Sequence record: NC_048170.1
Reading direction: 5' to 3' (one strand)
Origin: Escherichia phage vB_EcoM_Goslar
DNA length: 64,000 bases
Numbering within the stretch: position 1 is the stretch's first letter; each line of letters begins with the position of its first letter. Of this stretch, positions 2,552 through 51,181 are shown one piece after another. The notes beneath the pieces were generated by a model. It had not been told where the DNA came from. It saw only the letters and a program-made list of their open reading frames with translations, and searched no databases. Both the position numbers and the translations under genes were made by a program.

Positions 2552-2576
2552 TCACTTAAGTAATATAGCCGTGAAA
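2552..2576 (-). promoter_or_regulatory. conserved promoter-like motif, copy D
   Basis: Minus-sense TTTCACGGCTATATTACTTAAGTGA, 25-50 nt upstream of the 2528 start. Confidence 0.4.
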
Positions 2577-2678
2577 AATGTTGGATTAAGTTAAATACCG
2601 CAACCGCAGCTAATTTTATAGGCTTTTAGCCTAAACCAATCATCTTCGGAATCATCATCTTTGAAACAGGAATCTATC

Positions 2679-3500
2679 ATGGAAAAAGTATTTGTTTGTA
2701 AGTTGTTTACCAACGGCAATAGCCAACCAATGTATCTGACCGATCCAGTTCTGGGTAATCGGAACAGTACCGTATTCAAAGAAGCTTTCGAATACGCTAA
2801 AAATAAAGCCGTGAGAACGCTGACGTCTGATGACTGTATCAACGGTATCACGTGGGCAGAGTTATTCGGTGATGCTGTTAGACACTTCGTTCAGAACGCA
2901 AGAAAACAGGAAATCAGTCTCACGACTATCGTTGTGCGCGAAAACGCAGAAATTTTATCAAACGTTTTAGTTGATTTTAATGACGTTTGCGTGTTTAATC
3001 CAGAGAACACGTTTGAACAATATCTTACTGCCCTGAACAACCAGCTCGGTAAAGATATTCATCCCGAATTCGCCAAGTTAACATATCAGTTACTTTTTGA
3101 TGACATCGATCCAAATACGAAGATCAATACCAGCTCGTCACACCTGGTAAAGAAATACGGATCGGTTCTTGCTACGGCAACACCCACCACCGATGGCGGT
3201 TATGATATCGAATTGGATGGTCCATTAAAAGAACAAGAGCCTACTGGGGTTAGGGCGGTACATCACAACCTCGTCGTTAAATCTGATGGATGCGATGAAC
3301 ATTACGCTATGATAAACGATGAAAACAATTACCGTTTAAGTCAAGCGATTGGTGTTCTACGCTATACCGAACCCACTGTTGTAGACGATTATACATCGAC
3401 AACAACGCACACCACGTGTTTCATTTTCATTTATCCCAATGAAAGTGTGTACATTACTGACTGCTACGGCAACACTGTAGATAGCCTACGTCGTTACTAA
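2679..3500 (+). CDS. hypothetical protein
   Basis: Track ORF begins at TTG 2661; first ATG at 2679 has AGGA 9 nt upstream; followed by a hairpin plus T-tract terminator. Confidence 0.5.
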   Translation: MEKVFVCKLFTNGNSQPMYLTDPVLGNRNSTVFKEAFEYAKNKAVRTLTSDDCINGITWAELFGDAVRHFVQNARKQEISLTTIVVRENAEILSNVLVDFNDVCVFNPENTFEQYLTALNNQLGKDIHPEFAKLTYQLLFDDIDPNTKINTSSSHLVKKYGSVLATATPTTDGGYDIELDGPLKEQEPTGVRAVHHNLVVKSDGCDEHYAMINDENNYRLSQAIGVLRYTEPTVVDDYTSTTTHTTCFIFIYPNESVYITDCYGNTVDSLRRY

Positions 3501-3506
3501 TCGTCG

Positions 3507-3533
3507 AGCCTGTCCTTCGGGGCAGGCTTTTTA
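3507..3533 (+). terminator. rho-independent terminator (GC hairpin with TTCG loop, then TTTTT)
   Basis: agcctgtcc-ttcg-gggcaggct followed by tttttat immediately after the stop of the 2679..3500 gene. Confidence 0.6.
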
Positions 3534-3603
3534 TGCTGTTAAATATCCGGAATAAGAATTAACAAAATAGGAAAATGGTGTGAATATAACACAAAGGAGG
3601 GAG

Positions 3604-3726
3604 ATGATTATGTTACTCATTCTAATGGAGAGAGCATTGCTGGCGGGTATCTGCGCATTCTCTGTTAAACACGCTGTTGCTATCATGGCTGAAGAAAGGC
3701 GTAATACGCATAATGTATTACGCTGA
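3604..3726 (+). CDS. possible small hydrophobic peptide (40 aa), not in the ORF track
   Basis: ATG at 3604 preceded by AAGGAGG with 4-nt spacing; translation MIMLLILMERALLAGICAFSVKHAVAIMAEERRNTHNVLR; below the track's length cut-off. Confidence 0.3.
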   Translation: MIMLLILMERALLAGICAFSVKHAVAIMAEERRNTHNVLR

Positions 3727-3835
3727 AAACACTGTGTGCATTAGTGTATGACGAGAAATCGTCGAGGCCCCCGTCTTCACGAGGGCCAACACCTATGCAT
3801 GATTATCCATCGTCTGTTAAACAAAGGTTATAAAC

Positions 3836-4144
3836 ATGAGCAATTTGAACGTTGAGTTTACTTCAACAACGCCTGTCATGAATGGTGTTGGCACTGAAAC
3901 CAAAATCGTATTAGAACCCATTCCAGGGTTACGTGATCTCGGTGATTTTTATCAACTGATGCCGCGTATACGGAAGGCCTTAAACAGTATCGATCTTGAT
4001 TCTAATAAAGATTTCCAACACGATACAGAAAATACCGATCATGTGTTGCTGCCATCGGGGATCGCAAAATTCACCTACACGCAAACATTGAAAGCCTCCG
4101 ATGGTGAAATCCGTCGTTTTATCGTTGAAGTAGAAAGCGCATAA
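3836..4144 (+). CDS. hypothetical protein
   Basis: 102-aa ORF, ATG at 3836; ends at the conserved hairpin 4149-4180. Confidence 0.45.
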   Translation: MSNLNVEFTSTTPVMNGVGTETKIVLEPIPGLRDLGDFYQLMPRIRKALNSIDLDSNKDFQHDTENTDHVLLPSGIAKFTYTQTLKASDGEIRRFIVEVESA

Positions 4145-4148
4145 AAAC

Positions 4149-4180
4149 CATCCTCCCAACCCGTAAGGGAAGGGAGGATG
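4149..4180 (-). terminator. conserved intergenic stem-loop terminator
   Basis: catcctccc-aa-ccc-gtaa-ggg-aa-gggaggatg between convergent genes; minus-sense followed by UGGUUUUUAUGC. Confidence 0.55.
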
Positions 4181-4197
4181 AAATATGCCGTTAAACG

Positions 4198-4827
4198 TTA
4201 TTCAACAAACCCTGCGTTCAACAGATTGTCGTAAACACGATTAGCGACATCAACAGGAGAATGTGTGTTACTGGTGTCTATACACAACGTTTTCGCGTCG
4301 CCGAGATAGTCCATAAAATCCATGTAACGATAACGTCGTTTATTGAATGTCGCTTCATCGATGTTATCAAACATCTGATGTTTAGCGTGACGAACACGGA
4401 ACCGTCTTAAATACGTAGGATAGTCGATATCCAGATAAACATAGTAAGACGGCATGATAATCGACGGTAGGTTCGGCAACAATGCGTCAAACAACTTAAC
4501 GTTGGCATCATTAACCTGATAAACATACGTCGAAGCAATCGAACGATCGCTAAGCACAGTCTTCCCTTCGTTAAGGGCTGGATGAATCACCTTGTTGAAG
4601 AGATGATTGCGTTGCGACATCATCGCCAATAGCTCAGTTTCTGGATCGAATCTGTTCGTTGGCGTCTGATCTTCCAGGATAAGTTTACGAATGGCTTCTC
4701 CGTAGAGCGTACCACCAGGTTCGCGTACGACACAGACATTGTTTAAACGACTATGTAAAGACGAGATAACCGAACTCTTTCCTGAATAATCCAGGCCTTC
4801 AATAACGATATATTTATTACGAGACAT
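4198..4827 (-). CDS. tmk: thymidylate (dNMP) kinase-like protein
   Basis: P-loop IVIEGLDYSGKSS near the N-terminus, size about 210 aa; track start is TTG, first ATG at 4825-4827 has GGAG 9 nt upstream. Confidence 0.7.
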   Translation of the reverse strand: MSRNKYIVIEGLDYSGKSSVISSLHSRLNNVCVVREPGGTLYGEAIRKLILEDQTPTNRFDPETELLAMMSQRNHLFNKVIHPALNEGKTVLSDRSIASTYVYQVNDANVKLFDALLPNLPSIIMPSYYVYLDIDYPTYLRRFRVRHAKHQMFDNIDEATFNKRRYRYMDFMDYLGDAKTLCIDTSNTHSPVDVANRVYDNLLNAGFVE

Positions 4828-4843
4828 TCCCCGCTCCAATTAA

Positions 4844-6019: not shown

Positions 6020-6053
6020 AACGTTTTTTCCTTCTTGGGTTTTGTACATGTTG

Positions 6054-7477: not shown

Positions 7478-7498
7478 CAACATAAATCCTTATTTATC

Positions 7499-10018: not shown

Positions 10019-10069
10019 ACTTCAGCGTTATTTTCTATATCGTTATTTAAATCAGTAGGAGATTACAGC

Positions 10070-11158: not shown

Positions 11159-11185
11159 ACAGAAGAAAAAAGAAATGCTATACAA

Positions 11186-11220: not shown

Positions 11221-11235
11221 ATTATAGTTTATTTA

Positions 11236-11625
11236 TTAACGCGTTGCATTCTGGATGATTTCTTTTCCGATCTTAACCAAAGCGGGTATCTGTACAGCGG
11301 TTGCGCCTCGATGACGAAACGCGGTCGTTAACGCAGTATCGATACTCACCGCACGTCCATGAAGACGATCGAAATAGACTTGAGTGATTGCGGTAGCGTA
11401 ATCCTTTCGCTGTTTCTTGGTTTGGCTCAACAGCGCCGCACTATGACTAACGATGAAGTAAGCGATTAAGAAGAACGCCGCTGAACGCGAACCGGGTAGA
11501 AAACCTTGTCGCTTAGGGAGCATCTCACAATCGCGAACACTATTATCGTTCGCCAGCTCTTCCATATCAACACAGCATAATTTTGCATAGGTGTGGAGAT
11601 AGTGGGTAAAAGTTGAATTTAACAT
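11236..11625 (-). CDS. hypothetical protein
   Basis: 129-aa ORF, ATG with GAGGAAAG SD; last gene of a minus-strand block of 8 small genes. Confidence 0.45.
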   Translation of the reverse strand: MLNSTFTHYLHTYAKLCCVDMEELANDNSVRDCEMLPKRQGFLPGSRSAAFFLIAYFIVSHSAALLSQTKKQRKDYATAITQVYFDRLHGRAVSIDTALTTAFRHRGATAVQIPALVKIGKEIIQNATR

Positions 11626-11730
11626 TTTCTTTCCTCGATTACAATGAGTTCAATGTATAGCTTAAACGTCACAGAACGACGTATAACAGTTTGTTTTAAT
11701 TTCTAAGGGGTTTCCTTATCTAAGATTGAA

Positions 11731-12093
11731 TTAAAGCGCTCTGAAGAGTTCTGTAGCGTTCTCGTCACGTAAACAGGCTTCGTTCAACAATTCAGCTAAC
11801 AGCTTCGACCGAACTTCAACAAATGTCCTGAGGCGATGCTCCCATTCTAAACGGATAGTGTACGTATTATCCAGGTTTTTGTAATCAACGACAGATGTAG
11901 AACAACGGGCTTCGCGTTTGTTCACAGCACTCCAAACATCACGGATAACCATCACGCCTTTCTTGGTACACGTAAACGTTAAAATAAAGCGATTATTCGC
12001 TGCTTCTTCACGGACATGACTAAATTCACTTCGTAACGATGAGACTTTGATAAGTCGGTCAATAGCTAACGATAAACCGATACGTTGTTGCAT
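11731..12093 (-). CDS. hypothetical protein
   Basis: 120-aa ORF, SD AAGAGGGG; start lies 1 nt from the stop of the upstream gene. Confidence 0.45.
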   Translation of the reverse strand: MQQRIGLSLAIDRLIKVSSLRSEFSHVREEAANNRFILTFTCTKKGVMVIRDVWSAVNKREARCSTSVVDYKNLDNTYTIRLEWEHRLRTFVEVRSKLLAELLNEACLRDENATELFRAL

Positions 12094-12094
12094 A

Positions 12095-12520
12095 TCAAAT
12101 CCCCTCTTTCAGAATCTCATTAAGACCGTCAGTAATCCAGTCGAACTTCGTCTTAATCATGGCTGGGTTCAATCCATATACTTCCCACACAAGCTGGGGT
12201 TTATGTGTTCCATCGTCCAAACAAAGCACATCGATTGAGAGTACCATACCACCCGTCAATTTCATGTTCTCGCAACTACGAAGATATGCGGATTCTAGCA
12301 ATACTTTCCCTAACGCAGTGCAAGCAAATGTTAACCGGGAAGAGTACAGGTACGATGACGTTTTACAGTAGGTTGCTGATATCGGTTGAATATGTTTGCG
12401 GAGTTTGGCGTCTTCACGTAAAAGCAATAACGTGTGATGTAACCGCGTATGCTCGGTAACCGATGAGCTATACTCACCGATGCACTCTTCGGCGACTGAT
12501 TTAGGCCATTTAATTTTCAT
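12095..12520 (-). CDS. hypothetical protein
   Basis: 141-aa ORF, SD GAGGAA 7 nt upstream of the ATG. Confidence 0.45.
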   Translation of the reverse strand: MKIKWPKSVAEECIGEYSSSVTEHTRLHHTLLLLREDAKLRKHIQPISATYCKTSSYLYSSRLTFACTALGKVLLESAYLRSCENMKLTGGMVLSIDVLCLDDGTHKPQLVWEVYGLNPAMIKTKFDWITDGLNEILKEGI

Positions 12521-12535
12521 GTTCGATTCCTCGTA

Positions 12536-12979
12536 TTAACACTGTGTTCCATTCGATAAGCGGGTGGTATCAAAACGATCCAGTTGGTGTACAATGCTAT
12601 CAGCAACACGATGCAAATAGTGTATTTTGTCCATTCGTGAAATCGCAGAAATCGTCCAGCAAGCCTCTGACGTCCAATAGGTGCCGTCTTCACTAAGGCT
12701 AACGTTATAAACTAACTTCGTCATCACATTTCTCGCCTTATGCTCAGCAGACCAGAATATGTTTTCTAACACATCCTTCCCCGTTTGTGAAAACACGAAC
12801 CCAAGCTTCACGTCGAAGTCGGATGCTTCAAGATTAACGCAGTGAAGATGATTCTCTAACGGCGCAAAAGAGGCTAAACGTTCCAGCGCATGTTGCAGTG
12901 TGGGATGATCGAGCTTTTCGAGATCATCCGCAGGTTGTTCAGGTACAATCGCGATCGATTTACAGAATTTAATTTCCAT
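12536..12979 (-). CDS. hypothetical protein
   Basis: Track ORF 12536..13057; internal ATG at 12977-12979 has SD AAGAGGA; a GC hairpin sits just upstream. Confidence 0.4.
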   Translation of the reverse strand: MEIKFCKSIAIVPEQPADDLEKLDHPTLQHALERLASFAPLENHLHCVNLEASDFDVKLGFVFSQTGKDVLENIFWSAEHKARNVMTKLVYNVSLSEDGTYWTSEACWTISAISRMDKIHYLHRVADSIVHQLDRFDTTRLSNGTQC

Positions 12980-13091
12980 GGCAGGTTCCTCTTGATAGTG
13001 GTTGATGATAGTAACGGGGACGGCGATGTCCCCTTGGTTTCTTATTGCCCCGCCCAAACCCGATGGGGTACAGGCGGGTGATGTTGATGCG

Positions 13092-13499
13092 TTATAGCGG
13101 CATCAGACGTTCTTTAAGTTGGGTTAACTTATTTGCAACGATGGTCTCAACATCGATGATCTTGTTCATGTTGTCGAGGGTATCCTGCCAGATGAAAATA
13201 TCCACGGAACCGGTTCCGACTAACGCGTTCTCAGGACGATGGTCACGGGTCACGTAGCGTGGTCCCTGCGGGCAGGTTTGTAACTCGATCCAAAGCGCAT
13301 CTAACGGACCACGGTCCGTGACACCTAAGGCGAAGAATTCACCTCGTACGACCAGAACATCATCAGCCGTCCTGACACGGGTTGATCCTTCGTACACCAA
13401 TTCCATCTTTGCTCGACAGGCTGGGTTCTCGTTCCACGCCTGGACGGCATCGGCAAGGGCTATTGACGTTGCGGTGGTGTTCGTTTGATCATGTTGCAT
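13092..13499 (-). CDS. hypothetical protein
   Basis: 135-aa ORF, SD CAGGAG. Confidence 0.45.
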   Translation of the reverse strand: MQHDQTNTTATSIALADAVQAWNENPACRAKMELVYEGSTRVRTADDVLVVRGEFFALGVTDRGPLDALWIELQTCPQGPRYVTRDHRPENALVGTGSVDIFIWQDTLDNMNKIIDVETIVANKLTQLKERLMPL

Positions 13500-13576
13500 T
13501 CTAAGCTCCTGTAACGCTCTCTAAGCGTCGTTTTAAGTTAAGGTATAGTTTCCCTTCTTTGGATTCGTTTATTGCG

Positions 13577-13852
13577 TTATACGGCTTTTCTGTGCGCGTA
13601 GAACGCCTTCGTTCCGTTGTTGATTGCTTCAACCACATCCCGGGTTAACACAACGGCGTTATCGCTTCGAGACGACGGTGCGTAATACCCTTCACCGTTC
13701 TCGGTAATCAGGCGATAACGGACTAAGCCTATGCTCGGTTCAACACGTAGCACCTTCTCAAGTTTGTATTTGATGATCTTCGTCAGGCTGACTGTGTCTG
13801 ACGCGTAGATTGCTTTATAAACCTTGTTCTTTGCTGTCGGTTTCATCAACAT
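13577..13852 (-). CDS. hypothetical protein
   Basis: 91-aa ORF, weak SD. Confidence 0.35.
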   Translation of the reverse strand: MLMKPTAKNKVYKAIYASDTVSLTKIIKYKLEKVLRVEPSIGLVRYRLITENGEGYYAPSSRSDNAVVLTRDVVEAINNGTKAFYAHRKAV

Positions 13853-13892
13853 GATTTCTGTTGTACTTTCCTTTTCGCTTGTTGGTGTTGGA

Positions 13893-14192
13893 TTAAGGTT
13901 TAGGTTCCGTTTTGTGTTGTGCGAGTAGTGTGTTGATCTGCTCCCGTTGTTCTTTTAAGCATGCGGGAAGCTGGTCTTCCCGTACCGTTCCGATTTCCAA
14001 CGTGATGTACCAGCGTTGTTCGGAAGCCTGCCATTGAAAACTGCTCTGTAGCCGTAGGATGCTAGGATCACGTACCTTGCTTGCGCTGTAGCGATCGAAC
14101 CAATCCAGGTAAGCGGCTTTCCCTTCCTCGTCGGCAACGTAACGCTGCACGCTGTTCTTCCCTTTGTTCTCGTATCCCGTTGCACGTATCAT
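13893..14192 (-). CDS. hypothetical protein
   Basis: Track ORF 13893..14246; ATG at 14190-14192 gives an ATGA overlap with the upstream stop (pattern recurs in this window). Confidence 0.4.
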   Translation of the reverse strand: MIRATGYENKGKNSVQRYVADEEGKAAYLDWFDRYSASKVRDPSILRLQSSFQWQASEQRWYITLEIGTVREDQLPACLKEQREQINTLLAQHKTEPKP

Positions 14193-14971
14193 GCGAGCGT
14201 TGCTCCTGCATCGTGTTGCGGATAGCGTAGCATGGTAGCATCCCATTGTACGATCCGGCTCCGGCTTACCCGCATCATGATGGATTCATCGTCAAGACCC
14301 GGCTGCGCAACCGGCAACCAACGTTCGTTAAGCACCTTCGCTTCAACGCGTTTCTTGCGGGGATTGTAACGCACCTCGCTAACCCAAGCGAATCCAAGCG
14401 GATGCACAACCCGCGGATAATACATGCGAAGCAATTGATGCATCCGATCTGTTACCTCCAAGCTCGCCTCCGCCATGTAAGGTTTCACCATGGTAAGCTT
14501 TTTGGTGTAATACGTTCCAACGGTATGGTTCGCCCACCCAGGAAGCGCGTGATGGAATCCTACCTGTAATTGTGTATTACCGTTCACCTTCAGCCATCCG
14601 TATTGTCCCGCTGCACGTCCCTCGTCGGTATCGATCCATGTAAGTATATCGATGAATGCATGATCGGTGATCTCGATGCGTTCCACCCGTTCATCCAACG
14701 CACCACGTACCACGAATCCGCTCGTGCTCATCCGTGCAGGATGCTGGCTGCGATGTGCGTACCAATTCTTGTTGCTGGTAAGCAGGTAAGGATACAAGTG
14801 TGCGCCACGCCAAACAACCTTTCCGTTCGTCCCGTCAACGCAGCGTACGCGCATCCCAGCCTGACCGCTGCTGTAGCATGCTACCTTCACGCATTCCGCT
14901 TGCACCGTTGTCGGTAACGCCAGGTATTCATCTTCGGTAAACATCGTATCAAAAATCAATGCTTCTTTCAT
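14189..14971 (-). CDS. hypothetical protein
   Basis: 260-aa ORF, SD AGAGGAA 9 nt upstream; first gene after the AT-rich non-coding island and promoter-like motif A. Confidence 0.5.
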   Translation of the reverse strand: MKEALIFDTMFTEDEYLALPTTVQAECVKVACYSSGQAGMRVRCVDGTNGKVVWRGAHLYPYLLTSNKNWYAHRSQHPARMSTSGFVVRGALDERVERIEITDHAFIDILTWIDTDEGRAAGQYGWLKVNGNTQLQVGFHHALPGWANHTVGTYYTKKLTMVKPYMAEASLEVTDRMHQLLRMYYPRVVHPLGFAWVSEVRYNPRKKRVEAKVLNERWLPVAQPGLDDESIMMRVSRSRIVQWDATMLRYPQHDAGATLA

Positions 14972-15052
14972 TTAAAAAGTTCCTCTGTTTCACGTTAATT
15001 AAACAACGTATTGATTTCTATTTGACAGAATACGAACAGTGTACGTATCTAT

Positions 15053-15076
15053 CATGAAGGTAATGTAGTCGTGAAA
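15053..15076 (-). promoter_or_regulatory. conserved promoter-like motif, copy A
   Basis: Minus-sense TTCACGACTACATTACCTTCATGA; one of four near-identical copies, about 80 nt upstream of the 14971 start. Confidence 0.45.
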
Positions 15077-15638
15077 GGATTTGTGTTACAGAAAGGGTTT
15101 TGTTTGTTTTAAGAAGGGATGGATTTAGAAGAGGTGTTTCAAGGAAGGTAAACGAGGATAGGTATTTTGATTTAAGTAAGCAAGTAAGATGTTATCTGTA
15201 TTTGTTAAAAGTGTATTGTCTATGTTATCTTGTTTATCTTAGGTTATGTCTTATTGTTCAATCGTTTTATCTTGGTATGTTTACGTTGTTTTTATTTATC
15301 TTAAATTAATTTAAAAGTAGATCAATAAGCTTATCTTCAAAACAATGGATAACATGTGTTTACTACCTTAACGGTAACACATGTCATCTGTGCATTACAC
15401 TACGTTACATGCTAGTTAAATCGGATAACTCAAAAAACCATTTGTGATACTCTTCTTCACGTTGTTCATCAGAGTATCTCGTCTATACTCATTGCATTCG
15501 TATACGACATAACCGTTATACGCTAACGCTACGCTTATAGCTTGATAACTCTAAGGATAAAAACATAAACTCGCTTCGCTCGTTTAGTTTTTCTTTTTCT
15601 TAGAGTTATCCTGTTGCTCGTCTCTAAAGGACTTCGCT

Positions 15639-36897: not shown

Positions 36898-37173
36898 TTA
36901 TTTCGAGGTTAACCACGATTCAATTGTGGTGAGTTTGCTTCTCAGTACGCGCCAACTAGGGTGTGGTGGGATCACAGCGCCATTGTCGATTACGGTTAGC
37001 TGAACCTGGTACTTCTGTTGCATACGTGCTACCGTGTCGCTTATCGAGAGGAAAAGCTGGTAACGTTCATATGCCGTCAGTTCACTGTCCTGTTGAACTG
37101 CGTTGGCTGCTAACGTAATTTCGCGTAAGTCCTTTGCATCCACAGAGACGGTAATGAGTTTATATTGACTCAT
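36898..37173 (-). CDS. hypothetical small protein
   Basis: 91-aa ORF, SD AAGGAAA. Confidence 0.45.
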   Translation of the reverse strand: MSQYKLITVSVDAKDLREITLAANAVQQDSELTAYERYQLFLSISDTVARMQQKYQVQLTVIDNGAVIPPHPSWRVLRSKLTTIESWLTSK

Positions 37174-37234
37174 ACGGTTTCCTTATCAACTGGGGTATTG
37201 CAAATACAATACCCGTCGTCGGACGATAAGTTAA

Positions 37235-39793
37235 TTACTGCTCTTCACGTTCCAGCAGATACTCGGAAGCGGTAATACCGTTTACCGTACGTACTGCTTT
37301 CAGACGAGTATCATCACTCAGAATCACGGTAACAGATTGCAGACCTTTTACTTTGGTTTCGAAGGTCTTGAACACCTGATCCAGCATACGAGCAATGCTT
37401 GGGTTGGTTGCAGCCGATGCGTGGGTGTAACCGCTTTGGTTCAGCTTCAGAATCTTGGCGTTGGTCGGTACGCGAACAACAACATGCGGACGCATCGCGA
37501 ATACGCTGTGATTGAACCAGTAAGCGTCGTTACTATCTTCGTCGGTAACGATGTCTGGATTAACACGCATATCCTCGACAGCCGCATCCGCCAAACGACG
37601 TTCGATTTCATCGGCGTCCAGAGAGCCATCTTTCTCCAGTTCTGCACGATACTCACTCATGGCAACCAGATGACGTTCACGATTCGCTGCGGATTTTTCG
37701 TGAGCGGCTTTCAGGTAGTCATGCATGTTGTACAGTTCTGCCATGGAAAGACGAATGTTCCACTGACCTTCGCCATCGCGATTGCAGTAGAGACACTTCA
37801 GCATGTTGACCCAGGTATAGTAGCAATTGGCGAATTCATCTTCAATGAACTTCTGGTCCATTTTAAGATCGTGAATCAGCCAACCGGACAGTTCTCCGAT
37901 ATCATCAACGAAGCTAGAGATGGTGGTTTCAGAGAAGTTCTTCGGTACGATACGTTTGATCAGCTTATTGACGTCTTTGGTCATGCTATCGTTCAGGAAA
38001 TGCCAGATACGCAGAGGAATGACATCTCGATACTGTTGCATGATCTGACGATAAGCTTTGATATCGTCGCTACGACCTTTATCAATAGACAACGCATCCA
38101 GGAATTCATGGATTGCATCCAGCTCTTTGTCGGTATAGGTTCCCAGATAGGAATTGACGGTGGCCAGGAATGCTAATGCGTCGTTTTGGTTGACGTCGGT
38201 GTTGGTCTGCTGAATGATCGCCACTGCAGCTTTAGTTTCAGCATCCTCAACGCTTGACGCTGCGATCGCGTCGGTGACGGTAAACAGTTTCATTTCGCGC
38301 TGCTCACCGACAACGATTGGCTCACGCTGAACCGGCTTGTTAAGACTAACGCGAACAACTTCTGCTTGCGCGATACGATCCAGTTTTGCCATTTCCTGCT
38401 CTGCCATACGACGAGCGGTTGGATCTGATTCAAGTTCGATGTATTCCACTTCTTCCTCCGTGAGGGATGTAATGTCAACAATGGTTTCATGAAGAATTCC
38501 GTTTTCGTCGATACGTGCTCGACGAGCGAAGTGCCTGAAGTCATACAACGTCGGCCAACGACTATTAGGTGCAAAGTCTTTGGCTTTCAGACGCATCTGC
38601 ATAAATTCTTCATGTTGAACAACACGACCGTAACGCTTAGCATCTTCGGTCGCATCAATTGGATTAACGGTCTTTGTTGCCGTAGCGGAACGAGCCGTAC
38701 GAACCGGTTCCGGTTTCACCTGCGCCGGTTCAGGTTGAACGGGTTTCTGCTGTCCAGCCTTAACATGCCATTCTGGCTCTTCGTACTGTTCAGCAAATTG
38801 CTCAGCCGCTGCAAAGATATCGTTGATACCACCAATATCTCCTTCAGGATTTGTCGAGTAAATCCGTGGTTGCGGTGCCTCGTAACGCGGCGCTGTAGCA
38901 GCAGGTGCCTCATCAACGATAGGATCATCATCACCGACATCATACAAACGGTTGAACGCACAATCCTTCGAATCAATGTACGATGGTGTTTGTGGTTGGA
39001 CAACCGTAGGCCGAGGTTGTGTGCCGTATCCTGGTGTTGTTGGAGCCATACCACGCATAACTGCTGGGTTAGGTTGGTATTGTGGTTGTGGGTAGGTTCC
39101 ACCATACATGGCGTACGCAGGCTGTTGTGGTTGACCATACCCGTTGCTAACCATCGCACTTGCTTGCGGCCCACGATAAGTCATCCCCATCTGCATCACC
39201 TGCTGCTTCAAACCACGTGACTTCTGCGCGATTTGCGCTAGGCTTCCGCTTTTATTCAGCTGCGTGTACTTATTCGCGGCTTCCGGGTTAATGCGTGATA
39301 ATTCAATCGCGCGATAATATTCCGGGTACTGATTCGGTTCAAAGAGCCACGTTACAAGATGATACAGCGCAACTGTACTCACGGCAGCAGAGACGATCTG
39401 GTCGTCGGACGCGTTCTGTGGCATCGGGTTGATGTAAGAGAACACGTTCCAACAACAGTCTTCAACAAGCGATTCCATCATCATATCGTTATTGGTATAA
39501 CGTGCGACGAACTCGGTTTGTATTTTGTCTTGCTGAGCGAAGTCTTTCAGGACATTAAAGATGGCTTGACGGATTTTGACGATCGTCGCTTCTTGGGTGA
39601 TGAAGTTATAGTTCTGCTGATATGAGGGTTGTTGGTATTGTGGTGGTTGATAGGCGTTATTCGGGTATGCGCCGTACGGCGATTGCTGATACTGTTGCTG
39701 ACGAACCTGTTCAGCCGCATAATTAATCGTGCTCGTATAAGGGTTTTCGCTATAGCCCATTTGTTGATACATGTTGTTACTGCCATTATACAT
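37235..39793 (-). CDS. large hypothetical protein with Q/Y/P/G-rich low-complexity segments
   Basis: 852-aa ORF, SD AAAGGA; N-terminal YQQSPYGAYPNNAYQPPQYQQPSYQQNY and internal GYGQPQQPAYAMYGGTYPQPQYQPNP. Confidence 0.5.
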   Translation of the reverse strand: MYNGSNNMYQQMGYSENPYTSTINYAAEQVRQQQYQQSPYGAYPNNAYQPPQYQQPSYQQNYNFITQEATIVKIRQAIFNVLKDFAQQDKIQTEFVARYTNNDMMMESLVEDCCWNVFSYINPMPQNASDDQIVSAAVSTVALYHLVTWLFEPNQYPEYYRAIELSRINPEAANKYTQLNKSGSLAQIAQKSRGLKQQVMQMGMTYRGPQASAMVSNGYGQPQQPAYAMYGGTYPQPQYQPNPAVMRGMAPTTPGYGTQPRPTVVQPQTPSYIDSKDCAFNRLYDVGDDDPIVDEAPAATAPRYEAPQPRIYSTNPEGDIGGINDIFAAAEQFAEQYEEPEWHVKAGQQKPVQPEPAQVKPEPVRTARSATATKTVNPIDATEDAKRYGRVVQHEEFMQMRLKAKDFAPNSRWPTLYDFRHFARRARIDENGILHETIVDITSLTEEEVEYIELESDPTARRMAEQEMAKLDRIAQAEVVRVSLNKPVQREPIVVGEQREMKLFTVTDAIAASSVEDAETKAAVAIIQQTNTDVNQNDALAFLATVNSYLGTYTDKELDAIHEFLDALSIDKGRSDDIKAYRQIMQQYRDVIPLRIWHFLNDSMTKDVNKLIKRIVPKNFSETTISSFVDDIGELSGWLIHDLKMDQKFIEDEFANCYYTWVNMLKCLYCNRDGEGQWNIRLSMAELYNMHDYLKAAHEKSAANRERHLVAMSEYRAELEKDGSLDADEIERRLADAAVEDMRVNPDIVTDEDSNDAYWFNHSVFAMRPHVVVRVPTNAKILKLNQSGYTHASAATNPSIARMLDQVFKTFETKVKGLQSVTVILSDDTRLKAVRTVNGITASEYLLEREEQ

Positions 39794-39827
39794 TTCTTAC
39801 GATCCTTTTTATTTATTCGGTTATGTG

Positions 39828-41624
39828 TCAATCGATTATGTCGCGATCGTTAATTTCTACAATTTCTTCATCGAATCGACCGACGTCTTTCTTCAAGCCT
39901 GCATTGGTTGCTGCAACGTCATTTGCAATTTGTGGGGTAATGATTAACCGACCGCGCTCATCGATAGGTGCGTACATACTGAACTTCTGACGTCCGGTTG
40001 GTTCGGAGTGTGGAAGATTCAGATAGCTTGCACAGAACGGGATGGAACCACTAACCAAACGACTCTCGTCAGCCAATGCAGCACCGCCTGCGTTTTGGCT
40101 CTGGAGAACAACATGCGTGCTCACTTTGAACAGCATGCAATCACCAGGTGACTGAATCGATGTTGCCACTTTCTCACGTTTATCACGATTGCTCTGGATA
40201 TTGAGAATCGCTTCCGTTGCAACTTGATTTCGCAACGCCTTCTGTACATCGCGATTGGTCATCTCTTTACGGTTGTTCTGTCGTTTACCACGTTCTGTGG
40301 TTTTAAGATGGAACCCCAGTTTAAAGATGCTCTTACGCACATCCTCCATGACATATTCCAACACCATCAATTCCTTACCGAACATCGTCGTGGTATCAAC
40401 ACGACTCATTTCGATAGTGACATTGTCAATCAGATACGCCATAAATTCGTAGAAGTCGTCGCAAGGAATATTTTCCTGTTTGAACTTCTTCTGTTGAATC
40501 TCGTCAACGTAAAGATCGAGACTGTCGATGTGGTGGTTTACATCACGCAACAAACGCGCATCCGCATTGTTGTTATTAAAGATAATCAAACCGAGTAATG
40601 TACGCCAATGGTCTGGCGCATTCGCGAACTCCTCAACCGGATAGTCTTCCGGAAAACGATCGTAATAACGGTCGATGAGATACAAGAATGCACCGACAAG
40701 GCCAAGAACAATACGTTCCGTGCCTCCACGTCTTACAGCAATTTGAATATCAGGATGTTTGTAACGTACAGCGCTAGCGCTACGGCTTTTACCGCTTTTG
40801 CTGATACTAAAGCCTTTAGGAATAACCCCCATGGTGCGATAGATTACCCATTGGTCACGCGGAAAATCACGTTCAGCAAGGTTCCGTCCGGTTACGGCTT
40901 CGACACCTGCAAAACGTCGGAAACACTCACCCACCCCGTACTTCGCAAAGAGATAGTGACCCAGTGTGGTTACGCTGGTGTGGTTGATGTTGTCACCGTT
41001 CACTTTACTTTGTTTAGTAAGATGATAGATTTGCGACCAGGGTAATGACAGGTAATGACGATAATCGATACCGGTCGGTGTATCATTGCTCAGGAACTGA
41101 TACGGTGTACGTTTAACCGTGATTTTGTCACGCGGAAGCATGATGAACGCCATGTCTTTCGTGTAACTGATTACGGGGTCAGCGAGTACCGCACTGAGAA
41201 TGAAGTTCGCACCACGTAGACGCATTTTACCACCCTGACCTACCGCGGGCAATAGGAGAGGATGTCGGATAATGCAGTAGTCCTTTCCTGGTTCACGACG
41301 GTCACCTGATTCCATCGCGCCGTACCAGCGGAATTCCAGCATCACCATAAACACATCGGAAGGCGCAAGGTCGAAGGTCAGCTTACCGCTATCCTTCCCT
41401 TTGGTTTTCTTTCCTCCGCTTAAGTAGTGGAACTGTTCGCGGGCCATACAACGACGCAGGCCATGATACACCAGATCCTTAGGTAAACTATCTTTGCTGT
41501 TCCGCCAAAGACGATCAACATAGGACTCAACATCTTGCATCTTATCGACGACGATGTTGCGTGCTATCTTCTCGTTCATCTTCGGTGCAAGCTCAGCGAC
41601 AGCTTTGCAGAATCTAGGATCCAT
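39828..41624 (-). CDS. hypothetical protein
   Basis: About 598-aa ORF; track start is GTG, adjacent ATG at 41622-41624 has SD AAAGGAG. Confidence 0.5.
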   Translation of the reverse strand: MDPRFCKAVAELAPKMNEKIARNIVVDKMQDVESYVDRLWRNSKDSLPKDLVYHGLRRCMAREQFHYLSGGKKTKGKDSGKLTFDLAPSDVFMVMLEFRWYGAMESGDRREPGKDYCIIRHPLLLPAVGQGGKMRLRGANFILSAVLADPVISYTKDMAFIMLPRDKITVKRTPYQFLSNDTPTGIDYRHYLSLPWSQIYHLTKQSKVNGDNINHTSVTTLGHYLFAKYGVGECFRRFAGVEAVTGRNLAERDFPRDQWVIYRTMGVIPKGFSISKSGKSRSASAVRYKHPDIQIAVRRGGTERIVLGLVGAFLYLIDRYYDRFPEDYPVEEFANAPDHWRTLLGLIIFNNNNADARLLRDVNHHIDSLDLYVDEIQQKKFKQENIPCDDFYEFMAYLIDNVTIEMSRVDTTTMFGKELMVLEYVMEDVRKSIFKLGFHLKTTERGKRQNNRKEMTNRDVQKALRNQVATEAILNIQSNRDKREKVATSIQSPGDCMLFKVSTHVVLQSQNAGGAALADESRLVSGSIPFCASYLNLPHSEPTGRQKFSMYAPIDERGRLIITPQIANDVAATNAGLKKDVGRFDEEIVEINDRDIID

Positions 41625-41663
41625 CACACACTCCTTTCAGAAAGTTGCTTAAGCAGATTAAAG

Positions 41664-43100
41664 TTACTTTTTCGATGACGCCTTCTCAAGAATCTTGAAA
41701 AAGGTCATACCTATACCGACAACAGCCGCGGTTATACTCGCAGCGGCTTTCCAAACATCGACGTTACGTTGACGTCGCGCTTCTTCCGCTTCACGTTGTC
41801 TTTTTGCCTCTTCATCACGTCGACGTATCTCAGCCGCAAACTCGTCATGCTTACGTTTGGCTTCTTCGTCTCGACGACGAAGTTCAGCGACGAATTCTTC
41901 ATGTTTGCGTTTAGCCTCGTCGTCACGACGTTTTAAATCAGCTTGATAATCTTCGTGTATTTGTCTACGTAGATCATCTTGACGTTTCATTTCGGCTTGG
42001 TGTTGTTCCATCCTACGTTTTTGTTCGTCTTTAAGCTGATCGAGTTCGGCTTTATGTTGTTCATCACGCAGCTTTGCGTCGGCGCGATGCGCCTCATGCA
42101 TCTGTGCGATAACTGCCTTGTGTTCATCCGCCATACGTCGCATTTCAGCCATCACCCCTTTAAGGGTTTCTTCTGATGCCTTACGTTCGTAGCTACGTTG
42201 GTCGAAATCATTTTTGTAGGCTTCTTTTTGGATGGGGTCGCGCCAATGCAATGCCGATTCACGCGTCGGAAAAACATTGTACTTCCACATCTCTTTTTCC
42301 AAATCTTCGACCGGTACGAAGACGGAGTCATTATTCCCGAAGGTAACCAACATACCTGGCGCGCCTGCTCCATTCGTTGGTTTTATTTCGAACGCTTTCC
42401 CCAACACGTTAACCCATAAGCTATACGGATTATGAAAGTCGGGCGGCGTCCAATGGATAGTGAGTTGCGTTCCGAGAATCCGGAAACCCTCTGTTTTTCC
42501 CGTCAAGCTCCGCGCGCACGTTGCGATGTAGGGGTGATCAATCCCTTTCGTAACGTGGTCTGCGCTTTTGTATTCTCCTTTAACTTTTACGATTGCCACG
42601 TTGATTTGCGCGACATAAGCGGGTTGATTAAAGTTCAACGTGTTGAGGTCAATTTGACATATTTCATCCAGCGTATCGTACCAGTCTTGCTGGTCTAATA
42701 GACGCGGCATTTTCTCTGTGTTAACAATACGACGGATATGCGGTTTCCTTATCGCGTAACCTGTGCCGTTTTTAACACGGAGTATATCCCGACGTCTACC
42801 CGCGTAGACGAAGTTTCTGAATGCACCATTCGCATTAGATACGTCATGGCTGTCAACTATTACAGGACTACGAAATTTTGAACGTCGTACGATCCTGAAT
42901 GTATTGCCGTCCTCAACCCTACCAGGAATGTACTGGAACATATTGTCGGAGGTGATAACCAACACGGTATGGCCAGATTCATTAATACATGCCCATCCTA
43001 ATTCCAGGTCATATAACGGTTCAGCATAACCGTCAATGCGATATGCGTGCGTACCATCCCACGGTTCGAACGCAGTATCACATATTGGCATGGAGGGCAT
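41664..43100 (-). CDS. hypothetical tail-anchored membrane protein with tandem coiled-coil repeats
   Basis: ATG at 43098-43100 (SD GGAGG); three tandem 18-aa repeats RRDEEAKRKH(E/D)EF(V/A)AE(L/I), then C-terminal TM helix ASITAAVVGIGMTFF. Confidence 0.5.
   Translation of the reverse strand: MPSMPICDTAFEPWDGTHAYRIDGYAEPLYDLELGWACINESGHTVLVITSDNMFQYIPGRVEDGNTFRIVRRSKFRSPVIVDSHDVSNANGAFRNFVYAGRRRDILRVKNGTGYAIRKPHIRRIVNTEKMPRLLDQQDWYDTLDEICQIDLNTLNFNQPAYVAQINVAIVKVKGEYKSADHVTKGIDHPYIATCARSLTGKTEGFRILGTQLTIHWTPPDFHNPYSLWVNVLGKAFEIKPTNGAGAPGMLVTFGNNDSVFVPVEDLEKEMWKYNVFPTRESALHWRDPIQKEAYKNDFDQRSYERKASEETLKGVMAEMRRMADEHKAVIAQMHEAHRADAKLRDEQHKAELDQLKDEQKRRMEQHQAEMKRQDDLRRQIHEDYQADLKRRDDEAKRKHEEFVAELRRRDEEAKRKHDEFAAEIRRRDEEAKRQREAEEARRQRNVDVWKAAASITAAVVGIGMTFFKILEKASSKK
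41765..41945 (-). repeat. tandem 54-nt in-frame repeats (3 units)
   Basis: Repeated ttcttcgtctcgacgacgaagttcagcgacgaattc-type units encoding the RRDEEAKRKHxEF repeats. Confidence 0.5.
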
Positions 43101-43250
43101 CGTCAACCTCCATCAGATTGAAAACTATCACGCATAATACATTTCCCTTTTTCTTGTTCTTATCAAGCCGACAGCCGACGGTTTCAGCATCGTTCCTAGC
43201 GCGAGAACGACCTTACGTGTTGTCTATGCCTTATTCATCGCAGGCGTCTG

Positions 43251-43274
43251 TCACCTAGGTAATGTAAGCGTCAA
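43251..43274 (-). promoter_or_regulatory. conserved promoter-like motif, copy C
   Basis: Minus-sense TTGACGCTTACATTACCTAGGTGA, about 35 nt downstream (minus sense) of hairpin 43310-43339 and ~150 nt upstream of the 43100 start. Confidence 0.45.
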
Positions 43275-43309
43275 ATTTTTTCTATTCGCAACGATAAACG
43301 GCATAGAAA

Positions 43310-43339
43310 CCTCCCCCAACCCTTACGGGCTGAGGGAGG
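43310..43339 (-). terminator. conserved intergenic stem-loop terminator (variant)
   Basis: cctccc-ccaa-ccc-ttac-ggg-ctga-gggagg; minus-sense followed by UUUCUAUGCCG; downstream of the candidate capsid gene. Confidence 0.5.
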
Positions 43340-43438
43340 CTGACTTATGTATCACGGTGCCGGATGAATGTCCGGTGCAATGAAACCATCTGCAACGTTG
43401 TCATCAAGAATATCATCCAACGAAGCAGCTACGGTAGT

Positions 43439-45661: not shown

Positions 45662-45810
45662 TGAAAGTATCCTTTACAGAATTAACTTATATAAGTCGGT
45701 CGATAGACCATAGCGTACACGCGTGCATGCGCCACTATAGTATCAGTAAACACTTACCGTTATTGAGGTCGTGATACAACACTAAAAATGCCGCATAACT
45801 TTTCCCTACG

Positions 45811-46431
45811 TCATAAACGACGCAGGCGATAATGGATGGAACGATTGGTGCAATATGAACGGAACAGCGGCAATTGCGCAACTTCCGCAAGACTCATATT
45901 AATTCGCAGGTGTTCAATAACGGCGCTGTAGTTATCAGCAATACGATCGCTCAATAACTCTTCTGCCAATAAAGGAAGACAATCGACAACAATCGCGATC
46001 ACATCCTCATTAACATAACGCACCCGAACACTCAACGGACGTTTGTCTGGGCTGTAAGTTGGATCCGCCAAACGACGTTCAATATCACGCGGATAGCTCG
46101 TCAGTAAATGGTAATAACCATTGTCATAACGATTGATGTACTCGCACAGCACATCAACATTCTTCTCTGGCGGCAAACCTGTTTCGTCATAGTGATACGC
46201 AAACATACCACCAAGCAGGTTGTTAAGATGAACTGCAGGGTTCGCTTGTTCGTGTTCTTTCGTGATGAAGAAAGGCACGTTTTGAGCCGCGAAATAAAAA
46301 CCTACATCATTGGGCGATAGTATGCCGAAAAGACTTTTAGGATCTAATAACACCTGTAAGTCATCACGCGCATTTCGAATGATCGCGTGTTCTACCCAAT
46401 TCGGAACGACGAGATATCGGAGTTCCTTCAT
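45811..46431 (-). CDS. hypothetical protein
   Basis: 206-aa ORF, SD AAGAGG. Confidence 0.45.
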   Translation of the reverse strand: MKELRYLVVPNWVEHAIIRNARDDLQVLLDPKSLFGILSPNDVGFYFAAQNVPFFITKEHEQANPAVHLNNLLGGMFAYHYDETGLPPEKNVDVLCEYINRYDNGYYHLLTSYPRDIERRLADPTYSPDKRPLSVRVRYVNEDVIAIVVDCLPLLAEELLSDRIADNYSAVIEHLRINMSLAEVAQLPLFRSYCTNRSIHYRLRRL

Positions 46432-46470
46432 TATGATTACCTCTTTGCAAGTATCGAAAGGATTGAGTCG

Positions 46471-48081: not shown

Positions 48082-48106
48082 ACGCAAAAAAAAAGATTGT
48101 GCGGTT

Positions 48107-48138
48107 CCCTCCTCCAACCCGTAAGGGAAGGAGGAGGG
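48107..48138 (-). terminator. conserved intergenic stem-loop terminator
   Basis: ccctcctcc-aa-ccc-gtaa-ggg-aa-ggaggaggg; on the minus strand followed within ~10 nt by a U9 tract; between convergent genes. Confidence 0.6.
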
Positions 48139-48154
48139 GTTATGACCGCTTTGA

Positions 48155-48481
48155 TTAACTTATTGTCATGAATTCATTAGGTGAAAATTTCCAGCCGTTC
48201 TCAGTGAGAAGCGTGTTGAGTTTCGCTGCAACGATAAGCCATGCATGCATGGCCGTTACATCGTATTGGCGATTCACTCGACGTTGGTTTTCGATATTGA
48301 TTTGCTCCTGTTCAGTGATGTTTGGATAAAGTGCGATAGCGCTAGGTTTACCCAGCGCGCTAGTCATCACCGCAGTACATTCACTGATAATGTTGTTTAA
48401 GTGGTAGTTATACACCGTTCCACGCATGACGCGATGACGGCATTCGATAATAGCGTCGTAAATGATTTCTCGAGTAATCAT
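48155..48481 (-). CDS. hypothetical protein
   Basis: 108-aa ORF. Confidence 0.45.
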   Translation of the reverse strand: MITREIIYDAIIECRHRVMRGTVYNYHLNNIISECTAVMTSALGKPSAIALYPNITEQEQINIENQRRVNRQYDVTAMHAWLIVAAKLNTLLTENGWKFSPNEFMTIS

Positions 48482-48487
48482 GATAAT

Positions 48488-48889
48488 TTAAAACATACGG
48501 TCGTTTTTAGCACGGGCGTCCATTACCAGATCGTAGATGCCTGCGGTTCGTAAGCACTCTTCGTAGTAACGATGCGCGCCTTCATCAGCCATCCACGATA
48601 ACCCTCGGCTATCCGCAACGATAACCAGTTTGTTATTGTTGAACGCACACACCACACGGTAGGTCGCGTTGTTATTCGGATCGCGAGTGATAAGTTCGTA
48701 AACGCCGTTAACAGGTTTACTGAATTCACCGTTTAACGGGATGAGTTCGGTAGTACCTTCAGCAAACGTTACGTTGATCGGTGATGGGTCTTTAGCGATA
48801 ACAGTATATTCCACATTGTGTTCTTTACTGGTCATGATACCGAAGTAAGAACTCACAGGGGAACGCGGTACACTAAGAATATTAAACAT
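48488..48889 (-). CDS. hypothetical protein
   Basis: 133-aa ORF, SD AAGAGGA. Confidence 0.45.
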   Translation of the reverse strand: MFNILSVPRSPVSSYFGIMTSKEHNVEYTVIAKDPSPINVTFAEGTTELIPLNGEFSKPVNGVYELITRDPNNNATYRVVCAFNNNKLVIVADSRGLSWMADEGAHRYYEECLRTAGIYDLVMDARAKNDRMF

Positions 48890-48943
48890 GGATGTTGTCC
48901 TCTTAATTGGATTTAGATTGTTGGGTATGGATTGGGAAATGAA

Positions 48944-49513
48944 TTAGACGATGAGTGACCAGGTGGTAAGCACCCCGCTTGCGAATTCGAGCTTAAGACG
49001 TTTACCGATAAGTTGTTGTTGGATCATCTTCTCGGTGATGCGTCGATCTTGCTGAACCGCTTTATCAAACGCTTCTTTTGCTTCAGCTTGGTAGAAGTTC
49101 GTTTCTTCGTTGTCGTCGATCTCTTCGAGAGTATCGTCGTCGATGTCGGCAAGTTTCACTCGACCGTTTTCATCAGGTTGTTCTGCAGGTTCATTGTCAT
49201 ACGGCGTGTCTTTTGTTGGTGCGACACGATGTTGCAACTCGACCTGTGTTAACATGATCTCCATCTCACCATCGATAGGAATGATTTCATCGGCGCTGCC
49301 GTTTTCGGTTAGCTCTCGACTTTCCAGTAATGTCGTGGTAACAGAGAACACCTCTTCAACAGGAACCTCGTCATCGTCGATGGTGTTAACCGTGTTGCTG
49401 GTAACTTCGGCAACGACCATCAAATCAAATGCGTGAGGGTCACCTGGCATTTTGATTCCTGGAAGTTTGTTGAGGTACCAAGGATCAAGAATCATGATTT
49501 CTGGATTAAACAT
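48944..49513 (-). CDS. hypothetical acidic protein
   Basis: 189-aa ORF, Asp/Glu-rich; SD AAAGG. Confidence 0.45.
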   Translation of the reverse strand: MFNPEIMILDPWYLNKLPGIKMPGDPHAFDLMVVAEVTSNTVNTIDDDEVPVEEVFSVTTTLLESRELTENGSADEIIPIDGEMEIMLTQVELQHRVAPTKDTPYDNEPAEQPDENGRVKLADIDDDTLEEIDDNEETNFYQAEAKEAFDKAVQQDRRITEKMIQQQLIGKRLKLEFASGVLTTWSLIV

Positions 49514-49716
49514 CGTATTTTTACCTTTCTATGTTAGGTGGATTGCGGATAGAAGAATCAATGCATAGATTGATCGTTCTATGTTAGAAATTATTGCCGA
49601 ACTGGTTATGGTTATAACGCGTGTTTTCGTATTCTGACGGGTCGCGTATTAATAAGGTCATGACTGTATCCTCGATTATTAAGAGAAATTTACAACGATA
49701 ACAGTAACCGCTGTTA

Positions 49717-49740
49717 TCATCTAGGTAATGTAGTCGCGAA
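49717..49740 (-). promoter_or_regulatory. conserved promoter-like motif, copy B
   Basis: Minus-sense TTCGCGACTACATTACCTAGATGA, about 35 nt downstream (minus sense) of hairpin 49776-49807. Confidence 0.45.
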
Positions 49741-51179: not shown

Positions 51180-51181
51180 GT

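Follow-up and report, generated by a model that had tools for sequence, protein, structure and literature searches.

Probable early promoters of a phiKZ-like jumbo phage, read by a virion RNA polymerase, in a 64-kb stretch of Escherichia phage vB_EcoM_Goslar

We analyzed a stretch of 64,000 nucleotides (nt) of Escherichia phage vB_EcoM_Goslar (sequence record NC_048170.1), here called the window. Its minus strand carries four copies of the motif TTT(C/G)(A/G)CG-N-(C/T)-TA(C/T)ATTAC-(C/T)T-NN-(A/G)TGA, designated P1 to P4. The four copies are very probably early promoters of a phiKZ-like phage, read by a virion RNA polymerase (vRNAP). Recognition by the vRNAP, the exact start site, and the early timing are proposed here by homology. 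The enzyme reading the motif would most likely be a multisubunit RNA polymerase (RNAP) packaged in the virion, neither T7-like nor a modified host RNAP, and the promoter class would most likely be early. Promoters of the phiKZ type are a kind already known; two features, a -20 block that contains CG and the tolerance of a C at -12, are, as judged from the aligned copies, lineage-specific variations on it.

Four co-oriented copies of one motif between genes

Scans with position weight matrices (PWMs) recovered the four copies as discrete sites, in agreement with a first-pass annotation of the window that had reported four conserved minus-strand copies. A PWM built from the four sites scored 37 to 44 bits on the sites themselves, at most 8 bits in the rest of the window, and 16 bits on the best shuffle. 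When the PWM was instead derived from 21 distinct copies of the motif in related phages, the four sites scored 40 to 50 bits, while the runner-up reached 0.2 and the shuffle maximum was 18. No weaker copies were found by PWM scan in the 64-kb window. The generic pattern TTT-N6-TAYATTAC-N5-TG, with one mismatch or none, has 5 matches versus 0.21 ± 0.52 expected. Four of these are exact and correspond to P1 to P4; the fifth (3012-3035, plus strand) has one mismatch and lies within an open reading frame (ORF).

Only ~6.6% of the window is noncoding, yet each of the four copies lies between genes and is oriented like the next gene, which starts 25 to 152 nt downstream. The first-pass annotation had likewise placed every copy upstream of a minus-strand gene, and a motif search with positional mapping over the 64 kb located all four sites between genes and none in coding regions. 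Three of the coordinate pairs it gave are correct; its second 24-mer spans 15052-15075 rather than 15053-15076.

The TA(C/T)ATTAC core varies at its single Y position and is otherwise invariant among the 4 window copies and the 21 distinct copies from related contigs. This third core position (-12) is a C, giving TACATTAC, in three of the four window copies, and TATATTAC occurs at P1 only. A T-G follows at a fixed distance from the core in 21 of 21 related-phage copies, with an invariant A at +2. In the PWM of these copies the motif reaches further 5′, to a CA at about -30/-29 that carries 1.2 to 1.5 bits. The motif is asymmetric and nonpalindromic. The exact 14-mer CGACTACATTACCT, compared with IMG/VR, had single matches in more than 80 seemingly unrelated contigs among the matches listed and is too short to inform.

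The source is a phiKZ-like phage with two RNA polymerases

The ORF at 43439-45661 (minus strand) encodes a PhiKZ-type major capsid protein (MCP; PF25620 PhiKZ_MCP, E = 5e-218). The product of the ORF at 39828-41627 (minus strand) matches PHIKZ123, a subunit of the non-virion RNAP (nvRNAP) whose structure has been solved (PDB 7OGP chain E, E = 5.8e-41); a PHROG search of its operon gave phrog_2943. Local tblastn revealed synteny with phiKZ gp98-101, gp118-124 (including helicase gp118, MCP gp120, and gp123), gp128-129, and other structural genes. Two IMG/VR contigs are 93 to 98% identical to the window, IMGVR_UViG_3300011560_000001 (237.5 kb) and 3300045988_173921 (183 kb), and these near-identical contigs also encode homologs of vRNAP gp80, nvRNAP gp55, and chimallin gp54. 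The MCP is ~25% identical to that of phiKZ, and its best match in a known phage is 33 to 34% identical (INPHARED, August 2025). When 12 kb of the window was compared by megablast with GenBank phages, there was no match, so that collection has no annotated close relative, and an exact search for the MCP in the assembly index was likewise negative. The phage is not AT-rich (47% GC, versus 37% for phiKZ). From the MCP and gp123 homologs, the synteny, and the gp80, gp55, and gp54 homologs of the relatives, we therefore identify the source, at the level of sequence, as a deep-branching phiKZ-like jumbo phage, of the nucleus-forming and chimallin-encoding kind, with two multisubunit RNAPs.

The motif shares register, position, and gene class with phiKZ early promoters

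All RNAP-encoding jumbo phages have a conserved AT-rich motif near -10 before their early operons, which is read by the injected virion RNAP (PMC7598289). For phiKZ, 28 to 32 AT-rich early promoters read by the virion RNAP are attributed to Ceyssens 2014 in PMC8244752, PMC10914365, and PMC7598289. The early promoters of phiKZ and 201phi2-1 are conserved at -10, -20, and -30 (PMC11512511; for the blocks near -20 and -30, also PMC8244752). Those of phage AR9 have the form AAATATATATTAT-(6N)-G+1, and a start 6 nt after the element is also found in phiKZ and phiR1-37 (PMC5312081).

Our scan of the phiKZ genome found ~25 plus-strand copies of TTTaAa-NNN-TATATTAC-N5-T-G, a number that agrees with the published 28 to 32; the 25 phiKZ sites used here were chosen by exact match to TATATTAC. 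The window motif and the phiKZ sites have a common register: TTT occupies -23 to -21, the core (TA(C/T)ATTAC in the window, TATATTAC in phiKZ) spans -14 to -7, and a G preceded by a T stands six nt past the core, at the predicted +1. The window motif thus has three conserved blocks, near -10, -20, and -30, that correspond to those described for phiKZ.

Two of the window sites also have counterparts by position. The phiKZ spacer between gp120 (MCP) and gp121 reads GGCCCTCCCTTCGGGGAGGGCTTTATG...AAAAAAGTTTAAGATCTATATTACAGTAATGA and contains, in order, a CCCTCCC/GGGAGGG terminator with a TTTATG tail, TATATTAC at 120657, and gp121-122-123. The same order is found at 43.1-45.7 kb of the window, where the MCP gene is followed by the hairpin at 43309-43340, P3, a 478-amino-acid (aa) ORF, and the gp123 homolog. 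By sequence and gene order, P3 is the positional ortholog of the phiKZ TATATTAC site between gp120 and gp121. A further phiKZ TATATTAC, at 106875, follows gp101-102 and precedes a series of small genes convergent with helicase gp118. P4 has a matching layout: the gp101 homolog precedes it, the small ORFans behind it are convergent with a DnaB-like helicase gene, and by the same comparison P4 is the positional counterpart of that site. In Erwinia phage pEa_SNUABM_54, the sequence TTT-N6-TATATTAT-N6-G stands past the MCP terminator.

The genes downstream of the motif fall into a narrow class. The P1, P2, and P4 units consist of ORFans, and P3 heads an operon with an nvRNAP subunit gene. Pfam and PHROG searches with 18 of the proteins encoded downstream of the motif returned, apart from the gp123 homolog, only a single weak PHROG match to a family without known function and two Pfam matches below threshold. 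The structural genes of the window (capsid, virion proteins, and tail fibers) readily match PHROG families, and the motif is upstream of none of them. Since the motif precedes ORFans and the nvRNAP operon and never structural genes, its distribution is that expected of an early promoter; nvRNAP genes are early in phiKZ and AR9 (PMC7598289). The phiKZ lineage, the register, the positional orthology, and the gene class together lend support to the first-pass proposal of a phage-polymerase promoter belonging to a distinct temporal class.

Several observations weigh against this assignment. A PWM derived from phiKZ alone ranks just site 1 high, since it heavily penalizes the C at -12, and even the 15.6 bits of site 1 fall within the range of shuffles (maximum, 20.5). 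This PWM is not a clean independent test, and we therefore rely on the register, the positional orthology, and the count of the generic pattern. A C at the third core position never occurs in the 25 phiKZ sites, which were selected for exact TATATTAC, but is present in three of the four window copies, and the vRNAP of AR9 reportedly does not tolerate some single substitutions (PMC5312081). The -20 block is A-rich in phiKZ (AAACAG or AAGATC), whereas in the window it contains CG, in the form (C/G)(A/G)CG(N)(C/T); an invariant A at +2 also sets the window motif apart. In 201phi2-1, not all nvRNAP genes are near an early promoter (PMC11512511), and the gene-class argument is therefore suggestive rather than strict. 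Finally, the gp80 vRNAP homolog was found only in the near-identical contigs, and no vRNAP gene lies within the window.

Early promoters of other phages likewise share some features with the window motif and differ in others. Those of AR9/PBS1 combine a TATATTA(T/C) core with a 6-nt spacer and a G start; they precede early operons, and the enzyme that reads them, an injected multisubunit vRNAP, is of the type proposed for the window motif. Their core TATATTAT and the TATATTAC of phiKZ represent a conserved AT-rich segment of 8 to 10 nt near -10. Unlike the window motif, the AR9 promoter has a fully AT-rich upstream extension and no CG-containing -20 block; the phage itself differs in its uracil-containing genome and in having no phage nucleus. 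The early promoters of 201phi2-1 resemble the window sites in an AT-rich motif ~10 bp before the start, in conservation at -10, -20, and -30, and in their location before genes for hypothetical proteins, and 201phi2-1 has a terminator motif in common with phiKZ. They differ in the details of the -20 and -30 blocks and in having been mapped experimentally, by ONT-cappable-seq, which detected only 6 sites (PMC11512511).

Predicted transcription units and terminators

The coordinates of the sites, their predicted units, and the associated hairpins are listed in Table 1. P1 lies in a divergent intergenic region, and its sequence is identical in the two related IMG/VR contigs; a strong hairpin (1838-1865) follows the first gene of its unit. 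The predicted P3 operon ends at the family hairpin at 36846-36880. PDB sequence searches with the two large neighbors of the gp123 homolog gave no match. The first ORF of the P4 unit, at 49584-49661 (ATG at 49661), is a remnant, and the unit converges on the DnaB-like helicase gene at 46387-48081 (plus strand).

The first-pass annotation had described the copies as lying just after terminator hairpins, two of them ~35 nt downstream of a family hairpin. This arrangement applies to P3 and P4, which begin 32 and 34 nt past the terminators of the capsid gene and the gp101 homolog, respectively, and are the only directly terminator-adjoined sites; it does not apply to P1, with its divergent setting, or to P2, which is ~700 nt downstream of a family hairpin. 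The consensus of phiKZ terminators is BCCYCCCC...GGGRRGGBYTTATKYYGT (PMC10914365), and the hairpins and tails of the window family fit it; the tail after hairpin 43309-43340 contains TCTATGCCGT. A strong hairpin is found within 95 nt upstream of 18 of the 25 phiKZ early-type sites, often with a CCCTCC...GGAGGG stem and a TTATG-type tail ~25 to 35 nt before the site. A terminator followed by a promoter is therefore the usual layout in the phiKZ group.

The family as a whole, of the CCCTCC...GGAGGG type with a (T)TATG(C/T) tail, fits the intrinsic terminator motif conserved in phiKZ and 201phi2-1. The hairpin pairs at 27.7, 36.8, and 55.1 kb are apparently bidirectional. Most family hairpins were missed by a standard scan for terminators with T runs.

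Table 1. Motif copies, predicted early promoters and units, and family hairpins in the window (leaders are predicted, with the G of RTGA taken as the start)
Feature	Position	Strand	Details
Motif 25-mer, counted from TTT	2552-2576	minus	TTTCACGGCTATATTACTTAAGTGA
Motif 25-mer, counted from TTT	15052-15076	minus	TTTCACGACTACATTACCTTCATGA
Motif 25-mer, counted from TTT	43251-43275	minus	TTTGACGCTTACATTACCTAGGTGA
Motif 25-mer, counted from TTT	49717-49741	minus	TTTCGCGACTACATTACCTAGATGA
Early promoter P1 (predicted)	2552..2584	minus	-30 CCA; -20 TTTCACG 2570-2576; -10 core TATATTAC 2560-2567
P1 start (predicted)	2553	minus	+1 G; next ATG 2528; 25-nt leader
P1 unit, predicted early	102..2528	minus	four ORFans: 218, 177, 144, 233 aa
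Early promoter P2 (predicted)	15052..15084	minus	core TACATTAC 15060-15067
P2 start (predicted)	15053	minus	+1 G; ATG 14971; 82-nt leader opening with a hairpin at +1
P2 operon, predicted early	11236..14971	minus	eight small ORFs, 91-260 aa, no Pfam/PHROG match
Early promoter P3 (predicted)	43251..43283	minus	core TACATTAC 43259-43266
P3 start (predicted)	43252	minus	+1 G; ATG 43100, ribosome-binding site GGAGG; 152-nt leader
P3 operon, predicted early	36898..43100	minus	478-aa ORF 41664-43100; gp123 homolog 39828-41627; 852-aa ORF 37235-39793; 91-aa ORF
Early promoter P4 (predicted)	49717..49749	minus	core TACATTAC 49725-49732
P4 start (predicted)	49718	minus	+1 G; 57-nt leader opening with hairpin GATAACAG...CTGTTATC
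P4 unit, predicted early	48155..49661	minus	25-aa ORF and three ORFans (189, 133, 108 aa)
phiKZ-type intrinsic terminator after major capsid gene	43298..43340	minus	stem-loop 43309-43340, -30.5 kcal/mol, tail TTTCTATGCCGT
phiKZ-type intrinsic terminator after gp101 homolog	49766..49807	minus	stem-loop 49776-49807, -25.7 kcal/mol, tail CTTATGCTGT
Family hairpins	4148-4181, 15778-15809, 27746-27777, 36846-36880, 43309-43340, 49776-49807, 55080-55101, 63715-63746	minus	
Family hairpins	3506-3529, about 17600-17641, about 61009-61040	plus	

Conservation in relatives and variation between strains

The pattern TTTNNCGNNTAYATTACYTNNRTGA has at least 8 copies in the 237-kb near-identical contig and 6 in the 183-kb one, and is present as well in six jumbo-phage contigs (118 to 229 kb) that are more distant. 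Four of these six encode gp123 or gp149 homologs within the stretch fetched. The copies in relatives are all intergenic, and a co-oriented ORF begins 15 to 125 nt downstream. Three matches in unrelated contigs look like chance, and two of the three are inside ORFs.

In a comparison of the three near-identical strains, the flanks and the cargo diverge around a preserved motif. At P2, the window has the core TACATTAC and both relatives have TATATTAC, and P3 and P4 keep the C in all three strains. Because the C persists at P3 and P4 and the P2 core is polymorphic for T and C, these comparisons suggest that a C at -12 is tolerated in this lineage.

Insertions and deletions adjoin the terminator-promoter cassettes in the strain comparison (window 49616-49657 and 49812/49813; locus L114, 10423-12664; locus L122, 5184-5836; locus L134, about 3050-3100). 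In one relative, P4 is directly followed by 2.2 kb of additional sequence, where the window has the 25-aa remnant ORF, and both relatives have ~650 extra nt just before the P4 terminator. An insertion of 43 nt at P2 in one relative has on its flanks a direct repeat of 13 nt, TTACCTTCATGAT, of the 3′ end of the promoter.

An early-type promoter before a virion polymerase gene was unexpected. In IMGVR_UViG_3300034683_000041, the distant 118-kb contig (locus L128, 7345-8487), a terminator is followed by the motif, a 102-aa ORF, and a homolog of vRNAP gp149.

Alternative readings of the motif

Much of the genomic region around the four sites is structural, the phage has a gene for an nvRNAP subunit (the gp123 homolog), and middle or late promoters serve some of the nvRNAP genes of 201phi2-1 (PMC11512511). 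The motif might on these grounds be a middle or late promoter read by the nvRNAP, an enzyme that includes the gp123 homolog, but we regard this as improbable. Known nvRNAP promoters are short and undetectable by sequence analysis: the late promoters of phiKZ consist of T-3 A T G+1 only (PMC7598289), and its middle promoters show, near -22, a weak element that is AT-rich or reads TACT (PMC8244752). TATG is present at the predicted start in none of the four window sites, which read CATGA, GATGA, GGTGA, and AGTGA, and these sites are conserved over ~30 nt upstream, whereas late phiKZ promoters are not. The motif is instead in register with the phiKZ early element and absent from all structural operons of the window. 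It also precedes an nvRNAP subunit gene, which is needed before the nvRNAP exists.

Transcription by host RNAP, either from sigma70 promoters or through a host core enzyme redirected by a phage sigma factor or appropriator, is very unlikely. The first-pass annotation had judged the sigma70 fit poor, and the sigma70 scan indeed picked none of the four sites. The regions around -10 are AT-rich, but no -10 hexamer is present at 16- to 18-bp spacing. The TTGACG-like hexamer pointed out by that annotation proved to be part of the -20 block TTT(C/G)(A/G)CG and not a -35 element; TTGACG itself occurs in site 3, and the others have TTCACG or TTCGCG. Sigma70-like matches are depleted in the window relative to shuffles (20 versus 32.9 ± 6.1 in positions 1-20000 and 13 versus 25.5 ± 5.0 in positions 40000-59999), as would fit a phage that is independent of host RNAP and avoids promoters for it. 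Among the products of the window ORFs scanned, none was sigma-like. Rifampicin abolishes replication of the RNAP-encoding jumbo phages RSL2 and RSF1, but the homologous phiKZ early promoters function without host RNAP (both PMC7598289).

Equally small is the chance that the motif is bound by a protein other than a polymerase, such as a repressor at an operator or a factor for replication or packaging, or that it is a junction left by recombination or by a mobile element. The strain indels directly beside the terminator-motif cassettes of P4 and P2 would suit such a junction, but such indels are also expected where repeated promoter and terminator sequences recombine with one another. An asymmetric motif that is strictly co-oriented and always 15 to 152 nt from a start codon fits neither an operator nor a junction well. 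Moreover, both its sequence and its position make it a homolog of the phiKZ TATATTAC sites, and starts of the phiKZ motif have been mapped experimentally 6 nt downstream (PMC5312081).

A promoter for a T7-like single-subunit RNAP was rejected: although T7/SP6-type promoters are also ~23 nt long, highly conserved, phage specific, few per genome, and unlike sigma70 promoters, they are continuous from -17 to +6, whereas the window motif is split into blocks, the lineage encodes split beta/beta′-like multisubunit RNAPs, and the nine largest window ORFs (682 to 1125 aa) yielded no domain of a single-subunit RNAP.

Proposed mechanism and implications

If the four sites are early promoters, a multisubunit vRNAP homologous to phiKZ gp80/gp149/gp178/gp180 would be packaged in the virion and ejected with the DNA. 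It would recognize an asymmetric promoter of ~33 bp, with CA at about -30, TTT(C/G)(A/G)CG at -23 to -17, and TA(C/T)ATTAC at -14 to -7, and would initiate at the invariant G located 6 nt past the core (T-1 G+1 A+2). The early units so transcribed would be small ORFan genes, presumably for host takeover or antidefense functions, together with the operon for a subunit of the nvRNAP, which would later express the structural genes. The phiKZ-type terminators upstream of P3 and P4, at which late structural operons end, would keep transcription of those operons apart from the early units.

At 5 of 13 independent loci, versus 12.7% in controls (P of about 0.02), the first paired base of a helix of 5 bp or more is precisely the predicted +1 G. 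This coincidence gives weak backing to the predicted +1, and a hairpin starting at that G may be a structure that stabilizes the 5′ end. Leaders that start with a hairpin are found in the window at 49695-49718 and 15024-15053 and at loci L133, L139, L140, and L134.

The motif reveals no new kind of system. It provides a sequence handle for early genes in a deep-branching phiKZ-like phage and its relatives; these genes are candidates for host takeover or antidefense, and in the window such candidates are all ORFans. Across very distant chimalliviruses, the -10 core, the start spacing, and the terminator-then-promoter layout are conserved while the -20 block varies, which is of use for annotating metagenomic jumbo phages and for the question of how a virion RNAP recognizes its promoters. 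A more speculative scenario, which we consider rather doubtful, is that the core stayed fixed from phiKZ to this distant lineage while the -20 block switched from A-rich to CG-containing, possibly tracking a vRNAP subunit, and that the terminator-promoter cassettes are recombination junctions for early-gene cargo; the latter idea arises because indels directly flank P4 and P2. If the -20 switch does track a vRNAP subunit, comparing promoters and polymerases could identify the specificity determinant of a sigma-less virion RNAP.

Other features of the window

Between the family terminator at 15778-15809 and P2, the minus-sense region 15077-15825 comprises ~700 nt without a credible ORF. Its first ~370 nt (15410-15775) are 100% identical in the three strains, whose coding DNA differs by 2 to 7%, and this stretch folds well on both strands (z = -3.5 and -3.3). 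The region had no Rfam match and no BLAST match in known phages; it is a candidate structured noncoding RNA or cis-element.

Within this region, at 15225-15337 (minus strand), five same-orientation copies of AAGATAA occur in 113 nt, together with the variants AAGACATAA and CAGATAAC. The whole window has 21 copies of AAGATAA, versus 9.0 ± 3.2 expected, and the repeat number differs between strains through indels. The cluster is iteron-like and could be an origin or a protein-binding array. Neither tRNAs nor Rfam families were found in the window.

A tandem array of four paralogous ORFs of 385 to 446 aa occupies 58510-63690 (minus strand). By synteny, it stands in place of the gp93-96 internal head protein paralogs of phiKZ; PHROG searches gave no match of note, and tblastn gave no match to phiKZ. 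The early-promoter motif is absent in and around the array, and the PWM scans thus bear out its absence from 58.5-63.7 kb, as noted in the first-pass annotation.

Two large paralogous proteins resembling tail fibers are encoded on the minus strand at 18462-20510 and 24197-26350 (phrog_2163/13857, with several matched stretches each). One of the two ends in a Peptidase_S74 intramolecular chaperone domain.

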